A stretch of 64,000 nt of DNA from Gnetum montanum. Taxonomy: Eukaryota; Plantae; Gnetophyta. Every line of letters starts with the position of its first letter. Position 1 is the stretch's first letter. The position numbers and the translations under genes were made by a program. A model generated the notes under the pieces. It was not told where the DNA came from, did no database searches, and saw only the letters and a program-made list of their open reading frames with translations. This document shows, piece by piece, positions 1-57,605 of this stretch. Where the stretch lies: positions 124,001 to 188,000 of the forward strand of contig MNCI01000736.1 in assembly GCA_015680685.1 (NCBI GenBank). Direction: 5' to 3'.

Positions 1-2670
1 ACTAGGAATATATTTGATTTCAAAATCATATTCAGCTAATAATTGTATCCATCACCTTTGATAGGTATTCAAAATAGGCTTTCTTTGTAAATATTCTAAA
101 CTTTTATGATCTATTTTTAGTACAAAACTTTTTTTGTAAACATAATGTCTTCAAACTTTTAGAGCATGAACAATTTCTAGTAATTCTAAATCATGGGTTG
201 AGTAATTTACCTTGGCTCCTCATAATTTATGAGATTCATAACATACCACTTTATCTTCTTGTGAAAGAACTACACCAATTCCTATTCCATAGGCATCCAT
301 TGATATTTCAAATTATAATTCTTTATCTAGAATTCTCAAAATAGGTGCTATTGTAAGTAGCATCCTTAATCTAAGAAAAGATTCCTTGCATTTTTTCATT
401 AAATTTGAACATACTTTTCTCCTACAAAGGTCAGTCAATGGGGCTAGCAATGTAGAATAATCTTTAATGAAATTTCACTAAAAACTAGCTAAACCTAAGA
501 AACTACAAACTACTATAACATCTTTTAATTTAGGCCAATCTTGGATCACACTAATTTTTGCTGGATCTACTTACAATCCTTTCTTGGAAGGTATATGTTC
601 TAAGTATGAAACTTCTTCCTTAAAGAATTCACATTTACTCAATTTAGCTTTTAGTTAATTCTCTTTAAGAATTTCCATTGTGGTTTTCAAATGTTTGATA
701 TGTTCTTCTTTGGACTTAGAATAAACAAGTATATCATCCATAATACTTTAACAAATTGATCAAAATATTCATAAAAAATATTATTCATTAATGTCATGAA
801 TGTTTTAGGTGCATTAGTTAATCTAAATGGCATCACAACAAATTCATATAATCCATATCTGGTTCTAAAAGAAATTTTCTCAATATCTTTCTTCTTAATT
901 CTTATTTGGTGATAACCTGATTTTAAATCATCTTTGAGAAATAACATGCACCTGTAAGTTGATCAAATAAATCATTGATTCTAGGTAAAGTATAAGTATT
1001 TTTAATCATCACTTTATTCAATGCTCTATAATCGATGCATGATCTTAGTGTATCATCTTTCTTTTTATGAATAAAACTGGTGCACCCACCCCAAGGTGAT
1101 ACGCTAGGTCTAATTTTTCCTTCTTCCAATAATTGGTCTAATTGTAGCTTTAATTCTCTTAATTNTCCAAAATTGCATCAACATCACCTAGTTCAAATTC
1201 AAAATATTCATCAATGAAAGGCATGTTTTGAAAAGTAAAGTTAATTTCTCCATACCTAGAATTTTTGCTCATAGTTGTTCCATCTGCCAATTCTATCTTA
1301 ATAATTTTCTTGAAAGGTAAACTTGATTTCAATAAATTAATTAACTTTGGGAAAATAAAGTTATCACTGGTACCACTATTAATTAAAAATTTAATATGTT
1401 TATCTTTAATTGAACCTTCAAAAATTAGTAAAGCAAATTGAAATTTATGCAAACCTGATTTAGTCGATGTAGATATCTTCTTCACTGCTATGGTAGTGGT
1501 TGGATTTTCTCCTTTGTTCATGTGTGGGTTGGGTTTTTGATTTCTGATTTGGTTGGTCCTTTCAAAATTTTGTGTAATCTCATTTGAAATGCTCTTCACA
1601 ACAAATAAAACATCTAGATGCTAATTGAGTTTTTTTTTATTGGTGTCTCTTCTACCATTGCTTGTGGAAAAGTAGTTTGTTGAAGAGTTGTTTGTCATAT
1701 GATAACTCATATCTAATTTAATTCCTCATAATGCTTAGTAATTCTATATGCTTCATCAATGGTTTAAGGATTATGGGCTTATTTTTGGGGACATAATTGA
1801 GCATGTAGTCCTTCAATGAATTTTGAAGCTAATTCTCACTCATCTCAGTGGCTTACATATCGAGAGAGATCACAAAATTCCTTGTAGCAATCATCTATAG
1901 ATCATCTTCCCAACATTAAGGAATCAAATCTTATTTTTTTATTTTTGAGAAAAGAATCAAGAATGAATTTATGTTCAAAATATTGACAAAAATTAAGTCA
2001 ATTTTTAATCAAACCTTGAGATCTTAGTCCATTCCACCATGTTGCCACAAGTCCTCTTAAATACATGGAGATAACTTCTAAATGTTCATGGTTTGACAAA
2101 TTTAACATATCAAAGTAATTTTTTATTGCATCAAGTCAATCCTTGTGTTAGTACTAGATCCAAGGGCTCCATCATAATGTTCTAATTTTACTTGCTTAAT
2201 ATGAAATTTTGTTAATGATTCTCTAGGTGGATTAAGCCACTTCGCATATCCCTCATATTTGGTTTCAATTCTACAACCTACAGGAGGAATTTTGGTATCT
2301 TGTTCACTTCTAGGTAGAGGTTGTTTTTGGTGTGGATCCTTAGAGGGGATTTGATCTTGATCTTGATGTTGTTCCCTAGGTAGAATGTGGGCAGGGTTTG
2401 AAGACTAAATGAGATGGTCAATTAATTGTTTGATGGAGTCTACAAAGGAATCCTTCTTTCCTTGCATGTCTAACCATTTATCTTCTAAACTTTGGAACAA
2501 TTTCCTAATTTTCTTAGACATATTTTACATCTCTATCCCAAACCTTTGGTTTGAGTGACAAAGTTCTTCATGAACACCATTAATCTCATTAATTTGATCT
2601 TTAAGGGCATTCATCTAGTCATTGACTCAAACTTCCATTTCTCTCTAATTTATTCTTTAGGTTCTGGACA
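1..2670 (-). pseudogene. degenerate gag-pol (gag ~2670-1620, aspartic protease ~1450-1160, RT 1130-~480, RNase H ~330-1)
   Basis: Gag LEHYDG...MYLRGLVATWWNGL; protease FLINSGTSDNFI; [44 protein letters not shown]; RNase H MDAYGIGIGVVLSQ...NYSTHDLELL. Many stops and frameshifts. Confidence 0.93.
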
Positions 2671-2987
2671 TCAATAAGTTGAATAAATTAGGTATGTTGA
2701 GAATCCTTAGCCTCTATGGCTCTTTTTATGGGTCTCAAAATCATTAGTTAGTTGTAGAAGAAGTTGAAACTTTCATGGATTTCTTGTCAAGTATTGATCC
2801 AAATTATTTTTGGGACATAAAATAATGAACTAAATAATAATTTTCTATAATTTAAAATCCAAATATGACCATTCCATTGAGTCTAGAAGTTTCAAATCTA
2901 TTAGAATTGATTTTTGTTTGGTTGCAAATGGTCTCTAAATTCAAAATTTATAGCTATTTTAACTTTATGAACTTTCACATTTTCCTA

Positions 2988-3040
2988 GACTTCCTGAGAG
3001 GTCACCCATCCCAGTTCTACTCTAGGATGTGCATGCTTAA
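2988..3040 (-). promoter_or_regulatory. 5S rRNA-derived internal control region (A box-IE-C box) inside element A1
   Basis: Minus strand TTAAGCATGCACATCCTAGAGTAGAACTGGGATGGGTGACCTCTCAGGAAGTC aligns without gaps at 41/53 to the recalled plant 5S segment TTAAGCGTGCTTGGGCGAGAGTAGTACTAGGATGGGTGACCTCCTGGGAAGTC. Confidence 0.8.
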
Positions 3041-3269
3041 TGAAAAAAATTTTATTTCTCTTATTATCATAGCACCAATTTGAATTTTTATAAATAATTG
3101 AGTGTGTTTTCTATTTAAATTGAAATTGATAGGTGCAAATTTTTTTTGAAAAAAAATTTTGTCAATTGATGGGAATTTGAAAATTCCCATAAATTGTCAA
3201 AAAAAATGATTTTTCCATCAACTGATATATGACTCATTCGAGGATCCACATGGTGGTGCTAAAAGCAAT

Positions 3270-3500
3270 GATGAATGGCATTGGAGGTAGTGATTTGCAA
3301 CATAGAAAGCAATAATGAATGGTGTGGAAGGTAGTGATGGACAATGTGAGAGGTAGTGATGGATAGTGTATGAGGTAATGATGGATGGCATGGGAGGCAG
3401 TGATGGATGGCATCGATGGTAGTGATGGATGACATGGTAGGTAGTGATGGGTAATGCGAGAGGTAGTGATAGGAAATGCAAGAGGTAGTGATGAGCGGTA
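3270..3500. repeat. 22-bp tandem array (GAGGTAGTGATGGATGGCATGG, ~10 copies) in the A1 leader
   Basis: Repeated GGTAGTGATGG at 22-bp period; reverse complement of the array at 36850-37110. Confidence 0.9.
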
Positions 3501-4496
3501 GGCAATAAGCATGTGGTAGGCAAGGTGTGGCACAATGTAGTGACATGGTGTTGGTAGGTGCAAGGTGCAAAATGGTGCGGAATGATGATCAACGTAGAGA
3601 AGGTGGTAAGTCATGTAGAGGAAAATGTTTAAGGATGATGCAACATGGTGCATTGTGGGTTTTACTATGGCTACAATGTGGTGGTCAATTTTCTACAGCT
3701 ATGACTAGGCAACGTGATGTAGTGCAATAGTGTGATGGCATGAGTGGCACGGGGGGTGCAGTGGTTAGAGCAACAACAAGAGAAGTGTGGTAGTGCAAGT
3801 GATGGTACAGTCAGCATAGCAAGGCATGCATAGCATAGGTGGCAGTGATGAAGGCATGCAGGCATGATGTGGGTCATAGGGCTACGTTAGGTTGGGCGGC
3901 ATGGTGGTGCAAGCAGTGGATGTGTTAAGATGTCCTTGGGCCTTACCATGACTAGTCTTGTAGGCCCTACCATAGCTGGCTGTGGCCCTACTATGCTAGC
4001 CTCATAGGCCTAGCAATAGCCTTGCCATAGTTGGCCATAGGCCTAGCCATGGTTGCTCGTAGCTAGCTTCAGCTCGAGACCTCCAATTTTTAGGGTTTGG
4101 GTTTAAACCCGAGGCCTTCAATTTGATTTTTTAAAAATTTTAAAAAAAATCATATATATATATTATTAGTATTATTATTATTATTTAAACTACATGTAAC
4201 TCAAGAATGATCGTATCTTTCAAACCATAAGTCAGATTTTAATGAAATTGGTATCATTGAAATCATCTTGGAGAGTACTTCAAGTTAAACTATAGATAAT
4301 TCCACTTTAGTGAACATAAAAATCATAAAATCAAAAAAAGTGAATGTTATCTTTTAAAACAAAAACTAAATGTTAGCTTTTTCTTTAAAAAAAATTATAT
4401 GTTAGCTTTTATTAATTCTTTAGTTATCTTAAGTTATACTTTCTCTTGAATTTTTCTATGATTTCTATGATTGTATTATAAATAAGAGAAGTAGGA

Positions 4497-6536
4497 TGAG
4501 TTACTCATCACAACTTAATACCAACAAAAGATTATCAACAAAGAAGCTTCAAGATTTTCTATTATAAAGAATTCATAGCTTCCAAATATCAAGCTTCACC
4601 TCAGGCTCCTTCAGGTAGCAACTCTTTATTGCCTAATATTATTTTACATTAAAATAATGTCCTCTCTACTTTTGATCAAGTTCATAGCTTGCTTAGAAAG
4701 GATGGTTTTTAGTTCCTTACCAATTTTAAGTTAGCTGATTTACTTATTTTCCCAATTTTAAAACTTTTCCAATGCAAGAGTATTCTTTCAGAGTGGTGTG
4801 AATAGTATGAAAATAAGAAAAATTATACTTTTGAATTGGTTTTTGGAGTAATAACAATCCTTTCTCTTGATATTAAAGTATTCTTAGGTTTTCAACAAGG
4901 AGAAGATCTTTTAATTCCTTCAATTTATTCTCAAAAATTTAAATCTTTTTGTAACAAGGAATTATTTGCCTATGTTGTTGACTTTGCCATTGGCAAAAGC
5001 TAATTTGTTCATAAAGATTTCATTAACGAGGCTCACTTTGACTTATGTCTATTCATTATTAGCAAGGTTCTATGGTATAGACAGTAAGATAATGTTAGTT
5101 CTTATTCTATTTTCATACTTCATGGTGCCATAACTAGTAAAATTTATGATTGGTCATTGTTTTGTTTCTCTACCTGGTATATTGCTATGAATGATATTAT
5201 TGTTACCTAATAAAATCCTTCAATATCCTATACCTTATGTTGTATACCCTTGATCATGTGTATGATCTTAATTTATGATCATCCTAAGAAATGGTTTACT
5301 TGTTACAATCCTTAGTTGTGCCTTGAATTTCTTGAAGATGAGAGGATTATAAGGAGTAAGATTATGGATGCCAAGAAAGGTCAGCTGGCTTTACAGCAAG
5401 CTCGAAGTTAGGAGGAAATCAATGAGATATTTTCATGTTTTTATTATTTCCTTTTTTGTTGATTATGTTTTTATTTTATGTATTTGATAGTGCAATCTAG
5501 GTTGTAGAATGAACCAACGCAGAGTGTTGAAGCTACACAAGGCGAAGAAATTTAAAGTACTTCATCCTTTGGTATGGTTCAATCACAAGAAAAGATCATG
5601 TTTTCTAGTCCCAAGATATATATATTTAAATATAACTTACTTATTTTTATGTATTATCTATATATTTGTTTTTCTAACAAATCTCTGTTTGTAGAGGCAA
5701 TGTACTAGGCAAAGTTTTGGTAGTCCAGTAGTTCTAAGACAACAAACCTAACAACAAGCTCCACAACAATCCCAACAAACTTGGTAGAGTTCAAGACAAG
5801 ATAAGAGAATGTAACTAGAGGTAAGTTTTATTTATTTAAAGGTTTAAATACTTCTCTCTTTTCTTTATATGATGTTGATTTNTTTATTCAATGGGAAAGA
5901 TAGTGGTGGCTGCTAAAGAAGAACGTGTACTTCTTTGGCACATTAACCAATGAATCTCATATAATAAACCCTATTTTGTTCATGAGGGTGTCTACCATCT
6001 ATGAGATTCTTAGTCATGTGACTTCAAGGTAGATTATGATTTAATATACGCTAGATTTTCATCATCTTTTCTTCTAATTCCTAAGTATGCTCCAAATGAT
6101 ATAAAAGATCTAGAGCAACTCTTAGGAGAATTGGAAAGCACAACATGCTATGCTCACCATCTAGCAACTCATGAATGGTTTCTTCAAATTGATAATGATT
6201 GATTTCAAGCAATACTTCTTTTTTTTATTTATATTTGTTTGTTGATTTGCTCATAACTCATGATTTAAATCTTGTTCCCTATAGAGAGAGGAGAATGAAT
6301 GATAAAATGACATGGATGATTGATTAATATAGATGGATATGTTGCAAACCCAACTTGAAAGAAAGGAGGAATCCATAGTTGTAGCAAAACTTTCCATTGA
6401 ATATATCAAACAATTGTGTGATGGACTGGTTAGATGTAAAGTAGTACTTAGTAAGGTAGATGCTATTATTGAAGAAAGAGAGTCCCAATTGAAGATATTC
6501 ATAGATCTTCTTGAGTCTCTTGGTCATAACAAATGA
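4497..6536 (+). pseudogene. antisense accessory gene of A1, Plant Mobile Domain (PMD)-like, probably spliced
   Basis: One frame at ~4570-5426 is broken only by TAA/TAG stops. It contains LSEWCE*YENKKNYTFELVFGVITILSLDIKVFLGFQQG (PMD-type 'ERW..ETHTF....GE.TITL.DV..LLGLP..G'), KIYDWSLFCFSTWY and LIMCMILIYDHP. Downstream are GT..AG introns (5572-5694, 5821-) and a coiled-coil-like last exon (6333-6536). Confidence 0.6.
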
Positions 6537-6753
6537 TCATAGTTGCCTTTCTTACATTTTTCCCTTTCTACTTCTTTTCCCTATTCTTCCTTTTTCTATA
6601 TGCTATGTAAATGTACTTCCTCTCACTTCTCTTTTACTACAAAATAAAATAATATAATATTTTCTTCCATTTTATTATTTTTTAATGTACTTTTGTTCAA
6701 TAATAATAATAAAGTAAAATTTTTCTTCCACTTTGGCTCCTAAATCATGGTTT

Positions 6754-6765
6754 GCTTTAATACCA
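6754..6765 (-). promoter_or_regulatory. primer-binding site, tRNA-iMet (A1)
   Basis: Minus strand TGGTATTAAAGC (canonical TGGTATCAGAGC), 2 nt from the LTR end GTCACA. Confidence 0.85.
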
Positions 6766-6767
6766 AA

Positions 6768-7160
6768 TGTGACATCCCNTAGAAAATAAATAATTGGTAT
6801 TAAAGAATAATAAATTTTATTAATTGAAGAGAGTACTATAACACCCTTTAGGTTGTCTTCCTATGTCACTTAAGCCTTAGAGGTAATCCAACACTACCAC
6901 CATGGTTAGGCTATCCTGCCAAAGGGGTGATTAGTCCCTTTTTGTCCTACTTCACTTAGCTTTTGTTACTTGCCTTTCCTAGCTCTGCAACTCCATGCCT
7001 GGCATGACCTCTAATCTTGACCTTAAATGGCATAGGTCAAACCTTTTTCCAAGGGATATATATATAGTTGTAATCACTCATAATGAGGTGGTCCTTCATT
7101 TGAAGGTTAATTACATTGTTTATAATTATTTCCACCTTTAACAAGGGATGGGACATTATA
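6768..7160 (-). repeat. 5' LTR of A1 (shorter family-A variant; single N at 6779)
   Basis: Termini TGTGACATCCC...GGGACATTATA. The core CACTACCACCATGGTTAGGC..GCCAAAGGGGTGATTAGTCC is shared with the LTRs at 34275, 39774 and 49426. Confidence 0.8.
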
Positions 7161-8891
7161 GTTCTTGAGGGCTATGAGGTGGTCATGCACTTTGATAGAG
7201 CTTTGATTGCCCATGGGGCTAGTTCTTCTACCACCATAACATTTCCATATGGTGAAATCCAACACTTTGATTACTGTTTTAAATTTCCATGTACCAATAA
7301 TCTAGCAAAGTATGAGGGTTTGATTAGAGGAATGATGATAGCATATGATAAAGAAATAAAATTCTTAATGATTAAGGGTGATTCATAACTTGTGGTCAAC
7401 AAAGTAACCAAGGTTTATGCATGCAGAGCTAAACATTTATAACCATACTATGATCTAGGAAAGAAACTACTACAACAATTTATAGACATTAATATCCAAC
7501 ATGTATCCCAAACTGAGAACATGTTAGCCAATGCTATTATAATGCTAGCCCTTAGTGTGATGCTAGATGTGTTTAGAAATTGTTTCACCTTGACTATGGA
7601 CTATGCTCCTTCCAGTATACAAAACACTAAGGAAAACTCCACAGTCGCAATTCATAATACTCCTCCAAATAAGTGGTATGACAATATTACGTTTTACCTT
7701 ATGTATGGTAAACCTTCATAAGGCTTAACTACTACTCAAAAGGACATTGTATGTAAATTATCAAAATAGTATGTCATAGTATGTGATAACACATTATGTC
7801 AACAATCCTACAATGGCATATTGTTAGTATGCTTTGGCAAAGCCAAAGACCGAATGGACCTAGAGCAAGTTCACAAGGGTGTATGTGGGGGACATATAGG
7901 ACATAGAGCCATGGCTACTAAGGTTAGACAGTTAGGCTATTATTGGTCCTATATGAAAATAAATTACCTACAAAAGGTTAAAACTTGTGATACATGCCAA
8001 TGGGATAGCAACCTTATACACATATCACCAAATGAGTTGCATATCACCTAGATTACTTGGTTGTTTCAATGGTAGGGGTTGGATATCATTAGACCTATAA
8101 CACCTAAGTCTTCTATAGGGCATAGCTTTATTATCACTACAACCAAATACTTCACATAGTGGGTTGAAGCTCTTCCTCTAGGAAGAACAACATCTAAACA
8201 ATTCTATAGATTTATACTTGATAACATAGTAGCCCATCTTGGCATACCTATGACCATAGTCACAAATAATGAACTACAATTTAGTAGCCTAGAAACAAAT
8301 AAATTTTTTCATGAACTAGTCATTAAGCATTTCTTCTCATCACCATATTACCCTCAAGCCAATGGACAAGTAGAAGCAAGTAATAAGGCCATTAACAAAT
8401 TGATCAAGAAGATGTTGAAAACAGGAAGCCTAAGTGGCATGAGAGGCTTAACAACATTTTTAACTATAACTAGTGTAACCTAGTATAGCGTAGTTTATGG
8501 TTCTAAATCTATTTTACCTCTTGAGTTGTAGGTACCATTGCTCTGAGTGGTCTTGTCAAACTTCATCAATGATGAACAAAACAAGAAATTATGTATCATG
8601 GACCTAGATTTAGTGGATAAGCAACATGTGTGAACTCTTGCTGATATCAAGTAGTACCAAGAGAGGTAGAAGTGGCAACACCACCATAACCTAAGAAATC
8701 ACAAGATCAAGAAAGGAAACTTGGTCTTCAAGGCTATTTGCAAGCATGCAAATAAATTCTCAGCCAACTGGGAAGGGCCTTTTTTGGTTACCAAAGCCTA
8801 TGGCAATGGAGCATTTAGAATAGGAGACATCTATGGGAATGATTTATCCAATCCAATCAATAATTCCTAACTAAAACCTTACTACATGTAG
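7161..8891 (+). pseudogene. Tat-lineage Ty3/gypsy pol remnant: archaeal-type RNase H plus integrase
   Basis: HFD..., CTNNLAKYEGLI.G, IKGDS*LVV (aRH); HKGVCGGH..GYYW..KTCDTCQ; SSPYYPQANGQVEASNK; NWEGPF; ends LKPYYM*. Confidence 0.9.
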
Positions 8892-33300: not shown

Positions 33301-33613
33301 CAAATCTAGATTGTGCTCAAGGATCAAGCCAAAACAATATTTATGAGTCCCTAAGGAACATTTGCATATTGTAAGATGTCATTTGGTCTATGTAATGCTT
33401 CAACAACATTCCAATGTCTAGCTCTTAGTATTTTTCAATAGTAAATTGGTAGCAAGATAAAGGTCTTCATGGAAGACTTCTCTACCTATGGGTTTACATT
33501 TGAGCAAGCCCTAGACCACCTTGAGCAAGTACTAAAAAGATGTGTTGAAACAAACATTATGCATAATTGGAAGAAAAGTTGTTTAATGTTCCAAGAAGGC
33601 ATAGTACTCGGTA
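30400..33613 (+). pseudogene. Athila-like gag, protease and RT N-terminal part
   Basis: IPRFEGG..KLKLFP; NVLLDSGSSVNLI; DSEWVSPLIIVPKKGG, KDHFPLSF, FLDGYSGYNQI, FGLCNASTTFQ, FMEDF, EGIVLG. Confidence 0.9.
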
Positions 33614-34260
33614 TTTTAATGCATGTATAATGAGAAACTTGAAACATCAATATCTCCCAAACCATAAGTCCAATTGAGATGAAATTTGTATCATTGGAAT
33701 TGTCTCAACAAGTGCTACTCATTGGACATAGTTTTTAAGTTTAAAAATGTACTTGATTTTTCAGAAATTGAAAGGAAAAAACTAGCCTATTTTGTTGAAC
33801 TGACATTTCTAGGCTAATATATGGTAACTTGGAATCTTCTAAATTATTTGGATAGTGAAAAACAAGATCAATTCAAGCCATGGTTACTAACTTTCTTGAA
33901 ATAAATTTAATAATGATCCTAATTGATTAATAATTATAGTATTAGCATGGGTAAGAGTTACCTGGACTAGTGTATCATTATCTTACCAAAATCTCTTGTA
34001 ATTGATGAATTTTGATGAGGTGTAATCAAATCTTCATCAGTTAATGATATTCATGAAAGAAACTTTGTTGGTTGCTGGGATCTAGATGCCTAATCTATTG
34101 TTTGTGAAGTCAATGGAAAGGTATCTTCTAACTTGCATCACAAATATATGGTACATCCAATGATGATCAATGGCTTTCCATATGTTGTGGCTTCAAGGTT
34201 CATCATTAGGTTCATGTTTTAGTCAGTTGATGGTTCTGAATGGCCCTTGGGTCATGGTTT

Positions 34261-34272
34261 GCTCCGATACCA
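34261..34272 (-). promoter_or_regulatory. primer-binding site, tRNA-iMet (A2)
   Basis: Minus strand TGGTATCGGAGC, 2 nt after the LTR end. Confidence 0.9.
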
Positions 34273-34274
34273 AT

Positions 34275-34879
34275 TGTGACATCCCATCCTCAAATGTCAT
34301 GGCAAACATCAAATATACAATATATTAGACATTATGCATATAAAGAAAATATACCAAATGTGAAATATAAGTGATATTCAACATCATGTATAAAGGAAAT
34401 AATAGGAAAAATGTAGAAAGAGAAATAAAAGAACGCTTTATTAATATGGAATAACTTATCCAAATCATGCTCTGAGAGTGTTCCTTGGGGTTTTCTTCCT
34501 TTGGCATCTATCCCTTAGAGGAAATCTAGCACTACCACCATGGTTAGGCCTATAACCTAGCCAAAAGGGATGACTAGTCCACTTCTTGTCCCACTTCACC
34601 TAGCTTCCTATGACTTGCCTATACCAACTCTACCACTCCATGACTTACCTATACTAGCTCCACCATTCCATGTTGGTATGACCTCTAACCCTAGGTATAA
34701 ATGCTTTAGGTCAAACCCCCAACAGTTACCTTAAGAGACACATCCATTATTACAACATGCCCTTTTGGGTCTCAATTACAACTATCCTTTCAAGTCTTGT
34801 TAAGATAATAATAACACTAGTTATGAAGAGACACCATCTTCATTAGTTAGTAGCATCATATGGGAATGGGGATGTGACA
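34275..34879 (-). repeat. 5' LTR of A2 (605 bp)
   Basis: TGTCACATCCCC...GGGATGTCACA on the minus strand; colinear with 39774-40274 and 49426-50032. Confidence 0.92.
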
Positions 34880-35955
34880 TCATGGATAGTGCTCACAGGA
34901 TTGAACAAACTAGTGAGCATCCCTCAAGATTGTAGGCTAATAGTTCTTTCCATTAGGATTTTTACGACCATGCATCTCCTAACATAGTGGCCTCTACAAG
35001 GGCCTTCATGAGTATCTTGGAGAACGTGCAATTGATCTACATTAGGTACACACCAATGAACTAGGCCATCAGTGCACACCTTGTAAAGTTATCTATTTAT
35101 TTCCATCAAGTACTTAGCCTGATGAAGAAACTATTATTTTTTCTTGAAGTCCAAATATTTTGGCATCTCTTGTGTGAGAAGGTAAGTGAGAATGCCATTG
35201 TACCATTTTGTTTTTGTAGGAATTTTTTTATTTATTACTCCTATAGAGAGAAGTTCATCTAGAATATGATTATAGAGTAGGCTCTCTTCCTGTTTGTTAT
35301 CCCATATTAACCAAGAAAGATGGTCAACAACCACATTTTCAATCCCTTTTTGGTCTACCATTGTAAGATTGAATTTCTACAAAATCATTAGCCACTATAT
35401 GATATAGGGGCTCATCATTGGCTTATTCATTGGGAAGTAGACACTGCTAGGATCTACGTGCATAAATACTATATAGCCAAGCACATAGTACCTACACTTT
35501 TCAAGAGTATACACCATTTTCATTAGTACTTTGTTAGTTGTGATGTAATTCAACTTTGCATCCACAACGCTTTGACTCATGCAGTGGATGTAATATGGAT
35601 GTTTCTTGTCATCCAACTACATAATCACAGCTCCTAAGAAATAATTGGATGCGTCTATCATTATGTAAAATGGTTTGGACTAGGCTGGTACCTGTAGAAT
35701 TGAAATTTTTACAGTTTTATCCTTTAACTATTGGAATGCATGTTCACACTCCATGGTCTAGATGAATAGAGCATCTTTCTTTGTAAGCTTGACCAATGAC
35801 TTTACAATCTTAGAGAAATTCTCTGAGTCACCAGTAGTAGCTAGTGTGTCCAAGGAAAGATCAAATACCTTTGACTATCTTTGGCTGATGTGTGATTCCT
35901 TGGATGATACTTATCTTTTTTGGGTCTACCTCAATCCCTACTTGAGTAATTTTGT
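34880..35955 (-). pseudogene. inverted RT C-terminus, RNase H and integrase N-terminus of the Athila-like element
   Basis: GIEVDPKK, SFLGH..YY, DASNYFLGAV, NYITT..L.KMVY.LEK, KGIENVVVDHLS, HEGPCRGHY...FVQSCE. Confidence 0.9.
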
Positions 35956-36849
35956 TAAATTATTAATTTATTATTTGAACAAAAAAAATGTCAAAATTGT
36001 AGGATTTGGAATCAACCCAGAATCGCCATTTACGCATACCAAACCCTTACCTTGTCATCAATCGAACCACCACGTTAACCACTGAGGCAAGGTGGAATAA
36101 AATAATAATAAAAAGTTAAAAAAACTTTAATTTTGAACGAGAGATCATCAATTCAAACCCAATCCCCCACAGTTTTAATTTTAAAAAAAAAGATACATAT
36201 AATATATATAACATTATTTTTTAAATAAATATAATATTAATTAAAAAATAGAAAATATATATATAATAAAATATAATTTTGGAAAAAAATGGGGGATATA
36301 AGGTCTCAAGTTCAAACCCAAGCCCCAAAAAAATTAATAACAAAAAATAATTTTGACCTTGGCCAGGCCTAGGACTAGAGCTATAGCTAGTAGTGGCCAG
36401 GCCTATAGCCAACTAGGCCACAAACAAGCTACTGGCAAGTCATGACAAGACTAGCCCTAGGGCTAGCCCCAAGGCCAACCCATTAGCCACTCTACCTACA
36501 CCACATCGCACTATCGTCTATCGTCATATTGCACTTTAGTCCATCACCATATTATGCCTTGCATGCCTTCATTTCCCTTGCTACTCTACTTTGTTTTTAT
36601 TGCTACTCCAATATGCTACTATGTTCTTTAGTCTACTACCATGTCACACTCGGGCCTAAGCTTGTGCCTGCCACCAAACTGAACTGCATAAAAAACCCTT
36701 GTTTTCATCGTCACCACTAGGGCTATTGTCGTTGCCCTACCCTCACATTCCTTACTGTGCACCATCCATTACATGCCCTACCACTACCCATTACATGCCT
36801 GCCATGTCCACTTACCACTTGCCCATTGCCTACTGAGCACAACATCGAT

Positions 36850-37110: not shown

Positions 37111-37309
37111 AATAACTATAAATTTTCCTTTATATGATAGAAAATTTTCAATTGTCCATCAACTGATAGAAAAATTTGAAATTCCAATTAATTAACAGAA
37201 AATTTAAATTTTTATCATTAAACTATTAGTTTAAATTAGGAACTTGTGAAAATAGTTTCCAAAATCAGACTTGGGTGTAGTGGTAGAAACAAAGATTAAA
37301 ATCCCACAA

Positions 37310-37362
37310 TTAAGCATGCTCACTCTAGAGCAGAATTGGTATGGGTGACCTCTTGGGAAGTC
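37310..37362 (+). promoter_or_regulatory. 5S rRNA-derived internal control region inside A2
   Basis: TTAAGCATGCTCACTCTAGAGCAGAATTGGTATGGGTGACCTCTTGGGAAGTC, 41/53 ungapped versus recalled plant 5S; the flanks AATCCCACAA and TCATATCTCACACC also resemble 5S. Confidence 0.82.
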
Positions 37363-38110: not shown

Positions 38111-39340
38111 ATGGAGATTCAAAATGTCATTTTGATAAGGAATATGATACTCATGAAGAGAAATGATCTAGAAAAGAATCCAAGAATAGGAATGAAAGTT
38201 GCAACATACAACATGCTTGCAAAACCCCTAGTGAGTGAGAAACAATATCTGTTATGTCCATCATGGGCCTTGGATTCACATCAATATCGATACCTACTTA
38301 TTTTAGCAGAATTACAAGATTTGGATGCTGATGTCTTGTGCGTATAAGAAGTCTTACCATGGGAATTTCTAAATCAATTCCAACTAGATTTGAAAAAGGT
38401 TCTTATGGAAGTTCTTTTTTTTTAGCCATATAGGTTAGCCTATTGCAAAAATCACAACATGGATGGTTGTGTGATCTTTTATAAAGAAGCCAAGTTTGAA
38501 TTGGTACAAACATTTGAATGGAGTTTAGAAAATATTATTTTTGAAATTCCAGAACTTCAAGCAATGGAAAAGAAAGAATAGCTAAGATTTTGGAAAAATC
38601 ACATAGCCTTGGTAGTGAGTCTAAAAGTTCATCTATCAAGAAGATGTGTATGTGTGGTTAACACACATTTAATTGCCAAACCAACATGTTCAAATGTTAG
38701 ACTTTGTCAAGGAGCATACTTTATTAAGCCAATAGAAGAAAGTTTGAAGAAGAAGTTATTCCTAAGTTGNAATACTTGATTAAGCCAATAGAAGAAAGTT
38801 TGAAGAAGAAGTTATTCCTAAGTTGTACCAATCCAGTTCCATTTATTCTTTGTGAAGACTTCAATGCAAAAGTTGGAATTAGCATTTATCAATTCTTAAA
38901 ATATTGATCTATAAAAAAAATATTTGGAAGATGAACTTGACTTGAAACATATGTTTCCATCAATTTAGCATAGCCATTACATATTCTACCAATGCATATT
39001 CTACTTACTTTGAATCTTTAGTAGATAAATCAGACTTTAGAATTTAGGAATAGATGATGTTGATGAATAACACTCATCAAGAACCACAATTTACAAATTA
39101 CTCTACAATGATTAATGAGGATGGGTTAATAAAATTCTTCATTTAGACTTTGGATTATATTTGGTATGATGTCTGATTCTTTCAAGTTACCAAGTTACTA
39201 AAGTTGATTTCTAAAGAAGAAGTTGAGAAGAATCAAGATCAAGCCTTGCCATCATTAACAAGACCATTTGATCATATACCACTTATGGTAGAATTACAGT
39301 TACTCCCATCAATTCATAAGGTTGATAAAGATGAAGAAGT
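38111..39340 (+). pseudogene. CCR4/nocturnin/Angel-family EEP deadenylase-like gene carried by A2
   Basis: VATYNMLA..QY..CPSWALD..YR..IL.EL....ADVLCV*EV; DGCVIFYK..KF; KNHIALVVSL; CVVNTHL; PFILCEDFNA; EPQFTNY; TLDYIWY; ALPS..RPFDHIPLMVEL, all in canonical order. Confidence 0.88.
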
Positions 39341-39761: not shown

Positions 39762-39773
39762 AAGGGGGTAGAT
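39762..39773 (+). promoter_or_regulatory. polypurine tract of A2
   Basis: AAGGGGGTAGAT directly before the LTR start TGTCACA. Confidence 0.8.
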
Positions 39774-40274
39774 TGTCACATCCCCATTCCCAAATGATGT
39801 TGTTAACTAATGAACATGGTGTCTCTTCATAACAAGTGTTCTTATTATCTTAACAGGACCTAAAAGGGTAGTTGTAATTAGACTCGACAAGACATGTTGT
39901 AATAACAAATGTGTCTCTTAAGGTAACCATTAGGGTTTTAACCTAAGGCATTTATACTTGGGGTTACAGGTCTTGCCAGCATGGAATGGAGGAGCTAGTA
40001 TAGGCAAGTCATGGAGTGGTGGAGACAATATAGGCAAGTCATAGGAAGCTAGGTGAAGTGGGATAGGAAGTGAATTGGCCATCCCTTTTGGCTGAGTTAT
40101 AAGCATAACCATGGTGGTAGTGCCAGATTGCCTCTAAGGGATAGATGCCAAAGAAGAAAACCCCAAGGAACACTCTTAGAGCATGATTTGGATACGCTAT
40201 TCCATATCAATAAAACATTCTTTTATTTCCTTTTTTCATTTTTCCTCTTATTTTCTTTATACATAATGTTGAAT
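39774..40274 (+). repeat. 3' LTR of A2 (right end in assembly gap)
   Basis: Colinear with the 5' LTR, roughly 85% identical by eye. Confidence 0.92.
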
Positions 40275-47123: not shown

Positions 47124-50100
47124 AAATTGGTGTACATCACCTACCTATCTTGGGAAATTTGTACATAGTTCCAAATCTCTTGAATCTACTTTATGATATG
47201 CTCTACCATATTACCTACCTAATGGTGATACTTCATGGCATCATAGCACAATGGTATCCAACATGGTTTGGCATACAAGACCTCATACATGATTTTCTAT
47301 AAAATTTCCTAATAGCTATTTTTATAAGTAAAATAGAATAAGAAGAACATCTCATCTCAATTATCTTCATGCTATAATGCTTAGGGTTTCAACATATTCT
47401 TAAAGTTCTAGTTTACCTATTTAATTGAGGATTTACTATATGCTATAAACTACCAATGAATATGATCTACAGTATCTTGTAATTGCAAATTGCAATTAAC
47501 TATGATCTACAATTAGTCTACAACAACTTTCCTAGTTATAAAAACATACTCAAATGACTTAAAAATACTAATACACAGTTCCTATGACTTCTAACATATA
47601 TTGAGGATGTTAATTACATTAGGAAGATGAGTTTATGTCACCATTAAAATTCATACCAACTATCTTTAATATTAACTAAGGATTCTTGTGGAGACACAAA
47701 TTTCCATTAGACCTTTAATGTTGTACCTTTACTTTCTAGAAAATTAAACATTAGAAAAAATACTTACCTACACCTCTCTTCATGCTTGCCACCAGTGTAT
47801 CCATCTTAAACTTTGATTTATCTTTTCTCTACCTTATTGCAACTAATATTATCTCATATGTGGCTCATGCAACAAGTGGAATTGCAAAGCCTTAGTAGCA
47901 TAAACTTTATCATTACAATACAATACATATTAACTATCAATAGAGAAAGATCCATTATTGGTAGCTTGCTAATTCTACTCCAAGCATCATAAATCACTTT
48001 TCTACTACTTCTAAATCTCATAATGTACATTAAATTAGATGGAGAGGCTATGAACTTTACCTACTACATTTCTTAGCATGTTTGCAACTTGATATTCCTC
48101 TCAAATCAATATTTGATGGTAATTAAAATTTTTTAACAACTAAACTCATATGCATTCCCATAAATTCAACTATGCCTAACTCATAAGGTACTAAAGACTC
48201 TTATGTATAGTTCACACTATTACTTGCTCCTCATATAGATAGTATTGCTAAATCTTTAGTGCAAATAATTAGTACATCCAACTCCAAATCATGTGCCAAA
48301 TATTGTGGCTCATGAGGCTTTAGCTAATGAGAAGCATAAGCCACTATATTTTATTTCTAGATCAACACATAGCCAAACCCATCACTAAAAAATGTTTTAT
48401 ATTCATCATAGAAAAAGCTCTTCTTCGATGAGATCAACACTAGAGCAATCATCAATATGTACTTCAACCCATCAAATGCAACCTAACAAGATGAATTCAA
48501 TACAAAGCTAGTCTCCTACCTTAATAAATGAATCTAAGGAGATGCTATCTTGAATAAATGCTCCAAAAATTTATGGTAATAACCTATCAATCATATAAAT
48601 CTCTAAAAGTATACCACTAATTATGGAACTAGCCTATCATGAATCACCACAATCTTCACTAAATTCATAGAGATACCAATTCTTAACATCACATTTTCTA
48701 AGAAATGGATCTCATACTACCAAAATAAATAGTTGGATGGTTAAGTATAGAAGTGATACTACCTCAAATTCTACAACACCATCCATAAATACTTTACATG
48801 TAGTTTCTCATTAGGTGAATAAATTAGAACATCATCTAGAAAAATAATCACATACTAATCTAGAACTATCTGCAACAAACTATTCATGATATGCATAAAG
48901 ACTATTGGTGTATTTTTTAATTCAAGTGGAAGCACCAGAAAGTCATAATGATAATAATGAGTTCAAAATGGTATCTTTGATATATCTTATTCATGAACTT
49001 ATACTTGATGATAATTATATTTGATATCAATCTTTGAGAATATAGGGGTTTCTTGAAGTTGATCAAATAGGTTATTAATGTATAGAAATGAAGACTTATT
49101 CTTCATGTTAACTTGATTAAGATACTTGTAATCAATGCACAATCATAGGCTACCATATTTATTTTTGATACATAGAACTAGTGCATCCCAGGGTAATACA
49201 TAAGGACAAATGAAATCTTTGTTCATCAGCTTCTACAATTGTATCTTTAGCTCTACTAACTTTACTAGAGACATCTTGTGTGGTGACTTTGTGATAAGCT
49301 CTATACTGAGCTTGAGCTTGATCCTAAACTCAACCTCATGCCTCTATAAAAAACTTGATAACTCTATATAGAACACATTTAAACACTCATGGGTCATAGG
49401 AATCTAATATATTTTATTTATCTATTATCACATCCCCATTCCAAAATGATGTGGTTGCCTAATGAAGGTGGTGTATTTTCATAACAAGTGTTAGTATTAT
49501 CTTAAAAAGACCCAAAAAGGGTAGTTGTGATGAAGACCTGAAAGGACATGTTGTAATAATAGGCATGTCTCTTGAGGAACCTTTGGTGGTTTGACCTAAG
49601 GCATTTATACCTGGGGTTAGAGGTCATGCCAGCATGAGAAATGGCAGAGCTAGTACAGGCAAGTCATGGGGTGGTGGAGCTAGTATAGGCAAGTTATAAG
49701 AAGCTAGGTGAAGCAAGATACGAAGGGGACTGGCCCACCCTTTTGGCCAAGTTATAGGCCTAACCTTGGTGGTAGTGTTGGATTGCCTATAAGGGATAGA
49801 TGCTAAAGAAAGAAAACCCCAAGAAACACTCTTAGAGAATGATCCAAATACACTCTTCCATATCAATAAAGCATTCTTTTATTTTCTTTTTTTCATTTTC
49901 CCTATTATTTCCTTTATACATAATGTTGAATATTACTTATATTTTGCATTTGGTATGTTTTCTTCATATGCATAATGTCTAATATATTGTATATTTGACG
50001 TTTGCCATGACATCTAGGGATGGGATGTCACATCTATGCTCTATAGATTGATATCACATAATACCTACTCTCTTTTCAAAGCATCATGTGGGATCCTTAG

Positions 50101-57329: not shown

Positions 57330-57605
57330 CTACTCTAGCTTAAGGCCATTTCAGGCCATGGCTAGTTTAAGGCCATTTTGGGCCATAGCTATTTTAAAGC
57401 CATTTTGGGCCATGCTATAGTTGCAACAAAGAGTGGGTTGCCAATTTTAGGCCTTGGCAGGCCATGCGATAGTTGGAGGTCATTCTGGGCCATAGCTAGT
57501 TTAAGCCCATTTTGGGACATGGCTAGTTTAAGGCCATTTCGGGCCATGGCTAGTTTAAGGTAATTTTGGGTCGTGGCTAGTTTAAGGCCATTTCAGGACA
57601 TGGTA
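57330..57605. repeat. ~27-bp tandem array GGCCATGGCTAGTTTAAGGCCATTTYG
   Basis: About 8 copies visible with one interruption. Confidence 0.88.

Follow-up and report, generated by a model that had tools for sequence, protein, structure and literature searches.

In a 64,000-nt stretch of Gnetum montanum DNA (hereafter the window), two decayed members of a Ty3/gypsy retrotransposon family carry, within their leaders, a segment derived from the 5S rRNA gene's internal control region. This internal 5S module of a gag-pol family is real, family-wide and, as far as the literature was searched, previously undescribed. As a tentative explanation, given slightly under an even chance and resting on sequence comparison, the 5S promoter core, a fixed leader part of this many-copy family, may have been kept as a DNA docking site for TFIIIA, TFIIIC and TFIIIB. 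The two copies in the window are:

2988..3040, minus strand: copy 1 of the 5S-derived control region, covering 5S nt 52-104, with box A at 3042-3031, the intermediate element (IE) at ~3022-3021 and box C at 3012-3000
37310..37362, plus strand: 5S-derived internal control region, copy 2, 41/53 to 5S and 45/53 to copy 1 (nhmmer model 40-104 at 37298-37362, E 7e-9)

The first-pass annotation had recognised copy 1 as an ungapped 53-nt 5S match (41/53) covering the A box, IE and C box, and this is upheld by nhmmer, blastn, shuffled controls and box spacing. Read from 3040 to 2988 on the minus strand, the segment aligns without gaps to plant 5S nt 52-104 at 41-42 of 53 positions, with eight plant 5S genes as references (nhmmer E 1.3e-7; blastn E 8.8e-7), while the runner-up 5S site elsewhere in the window reaches 28/53 and no more than 32/53 is attained in 100 block shuffles. 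The reference genes come from a 24-letter pattern search of genome contigs, which returned 28 small contigs; an Rfam scan of 20 of these 28 loci identified 20 full-length 5S genes, of which eight were used. As a side observation, 28 deposited bacterial genome assemblies contain small plant 5S rDNA contigs, which represent contamination. The Cassandra query boxA-N18-boxC, taken from PMC7215508, has exactly two matches in the window, at 3000-3042 (minus) and 37308-37350 (plus), with two mismatches each, and none in 100 shuffles of the window. In addition, ~3,370 host 5S rRNA reads of RNA run X18 align to 2988-3025. The Rfam check proposed earlier for both boxes gave a divided result: no 5S match reached gathering level across the window, box 1 scored 20.8 bits (E 0.11; gathering score 38) and box 2 gave nothing at E<=1, in contrast with the significant BLAST and nhmmer scores. 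The 5S likeness is confined to the control region, with 5S nt 1-36 matching at 9/36 and 4/36 and nt 105-119 at 1/15 and 3/15 in boxes 1 and 2, respectively, and the box is thus not a full ~119-nt 5S gene. The similarity likely starts ~12-15 nt further 5', for a total of ~65-68 nt, as judged from the nhmmer model positions 40-104 in box 2 and from contig loose-end lines. This additional part is decayed in copy 1 (5/15), and since family-type contig lines remain 5S-like for ~15 nt further 5' (11/15 by eye), the captured piece would extend from about nt 37 to nt 105.

Copy 1 lies in the leader of element 1, which comprises the following features:

1..2671, minus strand: broken gag-protease-RT-RNase H of Ty3/gypsy, tentatively chromovirus-like, type (Pfam Retrotrans_gag E 4.9e-6, RVT_1 E 1.2e-9, RT_RNaseH E 1.9e-22; tblastn)
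3113..3119, minus strand: TATA-like 7-mer, positions -28 to -22 relative to the 5S-equivalent start; also present in copy 2 (37230-37236)
3151..3214, minus strand: AT-rich hairpin, upstream of the box; fold z-scores -2.67 (copy 1) and -0.75 (copy 2)
3329..3493, no strand assigned: 22-bp tandem array in the leader (TRF; also in element 2 by alignment)
4611..5411, plus strand: broken reading frame antisense to gag-pol in the leader, multi-copy and absent from element 2
6754..6765, minus strand: decayed primer-binding site (PBS) of Met type (Met PBS as printed in PMC7215508)
6768..7155, minus strand: 5' LTR of 388 bp, with no 5S similarity

Element 1 extends over more than 7.1 kb and presents an LTR, a PBS, gag and then RT and RNase H, with no integrase ahead of RT, as in Ty3/gypsy elements. 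Its closest protein relatives are gypsy elements, 44-50% identical in RT-RH; the term chromovirus-like is tentative, because one member of the relatives' cluster, P0146, has only a weak Chromo match (E 4.7e-4, under the cut-off). The LTR ends of the family are, we presume, Tekay-like. The gag-pol frame is interrupted by many stops and frameshifts, its protease is recognised solely as a motif in the translation, and integrase and the 3' LTR lie beyond the window. Box 1 is on the same strand as gag-RT-RNase H, 317 nt ahead of the ATG at 2671 (further decayed candidates for the gag ATG are at 2776 and 2818), and 3,728 nt from the end of the 5' LTR at 6768. These distances agree with the earlier placement of the box, sense to gag, ~300 bp upstream of it and ~3.7 kb from the LTR, and the Pfam gag, RT and RNase H matches on that strand confirm that the control region is internal to a gag-pol-bearing gypsy element. 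An LTR identity of 2874-4200 was considered and discarded, since this stretch is not followed by a PBS and has no TG..CA/target-site duplication (TSD), and since both elements show the true LTR-PBS in collinear position upstream.

Among the other leader features, the TATA-like 7-mer, located at -28/-29 in the two copies, is one of two identical runs of at least six letters between 3256 and 3042 (~215 columns of the two-copy alignment). Plant 5S genes have a TATA at -28 to -23 (PMC8264772); the word is a weak lead because it is AT-rich. A miRNA or snoRNA identity of the AT-rich hairpin was discarded, the Rfam matches being far under gathering scores. The antisense frame at 4611-5411 gave no Pfam hit and no homolog, and its contig depth in DNA run X2 is 2,000-8,000, depths here not being copy numbers and left unconverted. 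It falls within a multi-copy antisense region (~4470-6530, plus strand) with intron-like AT-rich stretches, where the reads of RNA run X18 include 68 that have a T-run as loose end at 5438 and 10-12 located at 6237-6241. On the far side of the LTR, at 7155-8890 (plus strand), lies a decayed pol interrupted by element 1; its translation shows an extra RNase H-like stretch ahead of integrase, and we take it to be Tat-like.

Copy 2 is the homologous internal site of element 2, located ~2.0 kb from the LTR, and a solo LTR of the family lies further along:

34275..34879, minus strand: 5' LTR of element 2, with the PBS at 34272-34261, within an apparently inverted block (~33612-35965)
38189..39300, plus strand: broken, apparently intronless CCR4-family deadenylase-like frame, in the place of gag-pol in element 2
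39774..40274, plus strand: 3' LTR of element 2, running into an N gap, with a polypurine tract (PPT) at ~39762-39772 ahead of it
49426..50032, plus strand: solo LTR of the family with a 5-bp TSD, inserted in another gypsy RT region

Element 2 is ~5.6 kb long, its LTRs are 87.8% identical over 500 nt (K2P 0.136), and gag-pol and the antisense frame are absent. By piecewise alignment, elements 1 and 2 are collinear through LTR, PBS, AT-rich/GC-rich leader, tandem array, hairpin and box, to ~125 nt past the box. The CCR4-like frame matches CNOT6L of the PDB (E 1e-13) and has 652 matches at E<=0.001, the best at 34% identity, plus a Pfam Exo_endo_phos match (E 0.0019) under the cut-off. As the best matches are only 29-39% identical, this frame may be a gene carried by the element that diverged long ago, and not one recently captured from the host. 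Element 2 itself lies within a different gypsy pol, the RT of which ends at ~33603 on the plus strand and the RNase H of which resumes at 35950 on the minus strand, from which an inversion of the block ~33612-35965, either true or an assembly effect, was deduced; it flips the RNase H-integrase part of the surrounding pol as well as the 5' LTR, the PBS and the initial 660 nt of element 2. A near-perfect 56-bp tandem duplication around a single N at 38716-38825 probably arose from the joining of sequences during assembly. In the 5' flank of box 2, a word at 37272-37283 (plus strand), poorly kept in copy 1, presumably resembles the tRNA box A consensus; ARAGORN predicted no tRNAs. Four LTR copies of the family occur in the 64 kb, and all four (one without its last ~100 nt, in the gap) are devoid of 5S similarity. 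The only two 5S matches in the window are both internal, and the box is therefore internal in two of the two window elements having this leader.

Presence of the box across the family was assessed in eight of 24 listed sequencing runs, six of DNA from five organisms and two of RNA, searched at 80% likeness. Five of the six DNA runs contain a clear family-type row, in which the box is accompanied by the family's own flanks; X12 has a mixed row only. Among the 24 contig pieces listed of 9,329, seven comprise the box plus flank and differ by 17-19% from the window locus. They derive from other loci, as a same-locus piece shows 0 differences over 303 nt. Two listed pieces cover the whole box with 31 or more letters on each side (2917-3074 and 2871-3089), three extend from the box to 2764-2808, in the gag-side leader missing from element 2, and further listed pieces carry on from there into the gag start, with two contigs matching the edge of the box as well as the 5' end of gag. 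Family-type loose ends with a non-5S flank directly 3' of the box occur in 108, 86, 112 and 119 contigs (X1, X8, X13 and X2, respectively) and 5' of the box in 60, 29, 69 and 50 contigs (X1, X8, X13 and X6, respectively), counts to be read knowing that the loose-end lines agree only at 0.56-0.64 and that at 3025 the rows combine true 5S and family copies. Because five of six DNA runs show the box with family flanks, some reaching the gag-side leader, it constitutes a fixed module of the family. Among the 15 joints listed of 35, one skips the box, by a 138-nt deletion in a single contig and not as a clean empty site. Outside these runs, 80 metagenome gypsy loci retrieved with the best RT relative as query showed no box; 77 of them are only 36-45% identical to that query, the three closer ones have at most 1.25 kb upstream, and most hold little upstream sequence. 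A search of viral contigs gave no matches.

The two window boxes are identical at 45 of 53 positions (85%), a level that falls to 192 of 332 (58%) for the flanking AT-rich sequence (p 1e-4 by Fisher's test), and the excess holds against flanks and tandem array together (362/569 identical; p 1.4e-3). This excess conservation is modest relative to the tandem array, since the GC-matched array, 72% identical between copies, reaches 41/53 in its best 53-column window, and both boxes were selected for 5S likeness, an ascertainment effect. Box A, IE and box C hold, the changes being gathered between the promoter boxes (5S nt 62-66 and 73-78), and a subfamily that differs in the same inter-box stretch emerges from the loose-end rows at 3022; variation is likewise located between the promoter boxes in Cassandra (Maiwald et al., PMC10853983). 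These patterns suggest that selection may have acted on DNA motifs read by TFIIIA. As to origin, A51 and T68 are common to both boxes and to the host 5S reads, as is G80, deduced from a 90-95% likeness class, and none of the three letters was found in the 28 retrieved plant 5S loci. At nt 58-59 the host has two CpGs where the boxes show deamination products; the product at nt 59 is the angiosperm-type letter, not the host's, a mismatch explicable by CpG decay. Letters of this kind would suit a host that is probably a gymnosperm; a literature search on them gave no paper. The host-like letters would fit capture in this lineage, beside which co-evolution with the host is possible as well, because Cassandras also mirror their hosts' promoters.

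Under the docking-site reading, the box would go back to a single capture, by an ancestor of the family, from a 5S gene in the lineage of the host. Factors bound to intact copies would idle without transcribing, or else yield at most a ~110-nt Pol III RNA ending at a T5 run, and the benefit would be a locally open, insulated chromatin patch just before gag in a heavily methylated genome, with genomic RNA still being made by Pol II from the 5' LTR. A T5 run lies 3 nt after the box in other copies, according to loose-end lines with an agreement of 0.56-0.64. The two window copies, both of which are dead, contain no T5 run; in copy 1, seven Ts in a row (3049-3043) lie immediately 5' of box A. The RNA of a replicating retrotransposon must begin in the LTR. 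Because the box is outside the LTR and is followed by T-runs, it cannot drive genomic or gag-pol RNA by Pol III; the earlier promoter proposal thus stands as to the identity of a 5S internal control region and falls as to a Pol III promoter of that RNA. The first T4 run is 41 nt downstream of box 1, 27 runs of four or more Ts occur in the following 2,987 nt, and four Ts stop Arabidopsis Pol III (PMC10533338). 5S promoters are the assembly site of TFIIIA, TFIIIC and TFIIIB (PMC10533338); in yeast, Pol III complexes exert local chromatin effects and, when bound, block Pol II read-through (PMC4228148). This last property weighs against a docking site, which would hinder LTR-driven genomic RNA because that RNA crosses the box. 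Retention of the box in element 2, despite the missing gag-pol and antisense frame, was counted in favour of docking. RNA run X21 provides 17 reads over 721 nt, four with the family's 3' flank, and X18 is swamped by true 5S reads; with one oligo-dT and one unspecified library, these runs are uninformative either way on Pol III activity. A bolder version, which we regard as a long shot, holds that the leader is a complete miniature Pol III gene (TATA-like word, 5S region and T5) making a ~110-nt half-5S RNA and shielding gag, and that the transfer of such a module into the LTR of a deletion derivative would have been the missing step to Cassandra; the lineage would be one of gymnosperms, the only seed plants from which no Cassandra is reported.

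Other explanations were weighed against the docking site. The 5S segment and its box spacing are as in Cassandra, and the box could accordingly be a fragment of Cassandra or another TRIM inserted in this copy. Such a fragment, which would be rare in the family and bounded by its own TG..CA ends and TSD, had been named beforehand as what would undo the finding. The searches point the other way: within 600 nt, neither box is enclosed by a TG..CA pair with a 5-bp duplication (0/1,188 and 0/1,600 pairs), no PBS-like word occurs near them except a chance one inside box 2, the LTRs contain no 5S, collinear homology crosses the box on both sides and many copies occur in contigs. No Cassandra has been reported from gymnosperms, according to PMC10946416. 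A nested Cassandra is thus largely refuted and exceedingly improbable. In comparison with SINE3, no tail was seen and homology is continuous through the box, an ancient insertion being possibly eroded. A more serious contender, still unlikely, is that a 5S fragment (from a template switch, a pseudogene or an old SINE3-like insertion) was fixed by chance and copied as a neutral passenger without function. Both copies are indeed decayed, mostly by transitions, the best array window and the choice of boxes by 5S likeness weaken the conservation argument as described above, and 5S pseudogenes occur in gymnosperm genomes (PMC6526317). Chance retention sits less easily with a box that is still 85% identical where its flanks have drifted to 53-65%, with variation placed between the promoter boxes, with a retained stretch close to the ~70-bp core kept by Cassandras (PMC10853983), and with its persistence in a derivative that lost the coding regions.

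The box might instead act in RNA, the leader folding like 5S helices IV-V and recruiting TFIIIA or L5 for export, packaging or gag translation, which we consider improbable. It is in sense orientation ~300 nt before gag, copy 1 forms a helix IV/V-like hairpin (-19.9 kcal/mol, z -1.92; z -3.46 for the 117-nt stretch), and TFIIIA binds 5S DNA and RNA alike (PMC10533338). Copy 2, however, has no such fold (z -0.90 and 0.09), neither the 5' half nor helix I's 3' strand is present (9/36, 4/36, 1/15 and 3/15, as above), and box A is conserved though its pairing partner is gone. Loop E has a role in 5S, and its U76 is changed in both copies. A full mimic of 5S RNA, one of the roles first suggested for the segment, is unlikely because the 5' half is absent, U76 is changed in both copies and the fold of copy 2 is not 5S-like. 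Very unlikely, finally, is an internal promoter for a subgenomic gag-pol RNA, at which factors including TBP would start a transcript before gag and skip the 3.7-kb leader. Position and orientation, the very long leader with its antisense frame and the TATA-like word at -28 are in line with it. Against it, Pol III RNAs are uncapped, and no start cluster was seen near the box among the rows listed for the two RNA runs, whose libraries are poorly suited; Pol III would also stop at the T-runs right after the box (PMC10533338).

Whatever its role, the module resembles known 5S-bearing elements in part. With Cassandra TRIMs it shares a ~70-nt 5S segment with box A, IE and box C at 18-nt spacing, variable inter-box motifs and host-matching promoter letters (PMC10853983, PMC7215508), as well as a Met PBS, in both window elements, and a PPT, in element 2. 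Cassandra elements are 563-968 bp long and non-coding, with 5S in both LTRs driving element RNA (PMC10853983, PMC7215508). In contrast, the present box is single and internal, stands ahead of gag-pol at a distance of 2-3.7 kb from the LTR, and is unable to drive genomic RNA; 5S is not in the LTRs, and the elements are larger, with gag-RT-RH in element 1 and the CCR4-like frame in element 2. According to PMC10886601 and PMC7215508, no autonomous partner of Cassandra is known. Ajax and Helenus (TRIMp3) are likewise LTR elements with an independently acquired promoter fragment of a small-RNA gene, but are short and non-autonomous and have the promoter in the LTR; their autonomous partners are expected to use Pol II promoters, and none is named with a 5S segment in the sections consulted (PMC10886601). 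SINE3 is a mobile element with a 5S-derived Pol III promoter, yet it is a non-LTR element with 5S as its 5' head, and no 5S-derived SINE is known from plants according to the review PMC10946416. The LTR-PBS-gag-PR-RT-RH order is that of plant chromovirus-like Ty3/gypsy elements, to which the present family adds a long leader with a tandem array, an antisense frame and the 5S control region.

No gag-pol LTR family with an internal 5S control region was found in the literature search (including the accessible parts of PMC12222929, PMC12486564, PMC3692318 and PMC6526317), which covered the literature without most subscription papers and without Repbase. In Table 2 of a 2024 review, carriers of 5S promoters are SINEs and the TRIMs Cassandra and Ajax only (PMC10946416). 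These SINEs and tiny TRIMs need the promoter for their own transcription (PMC10946416), whereas here the core sits where it cannot make element RNA. Having gag-pol and a promoter in its LTRs, the family provides a natural test of whether a plant retrotransposon uses Pol III factors for something other than transcription, and a comparison case for how Cassandra arose. A further caution is that dispersed 5S signals, like 5S copy counts, may in genomes of this kind comprise hundreds of boxes from retrotransposons.

The remainder of the window, which has a GC content of 0.33 and a CpG o/e of 0.13, is full of decayed retroelements. Three more LTR pairs, 78-85% identical, are located at 17464-18561/22922-23982, 28644-29459/46300-47123 and 54798-55470/62024-62697, the first being followed by a Met PBS and a copia-like gag. 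A 27-bp tandem array occupies 57335-57593.
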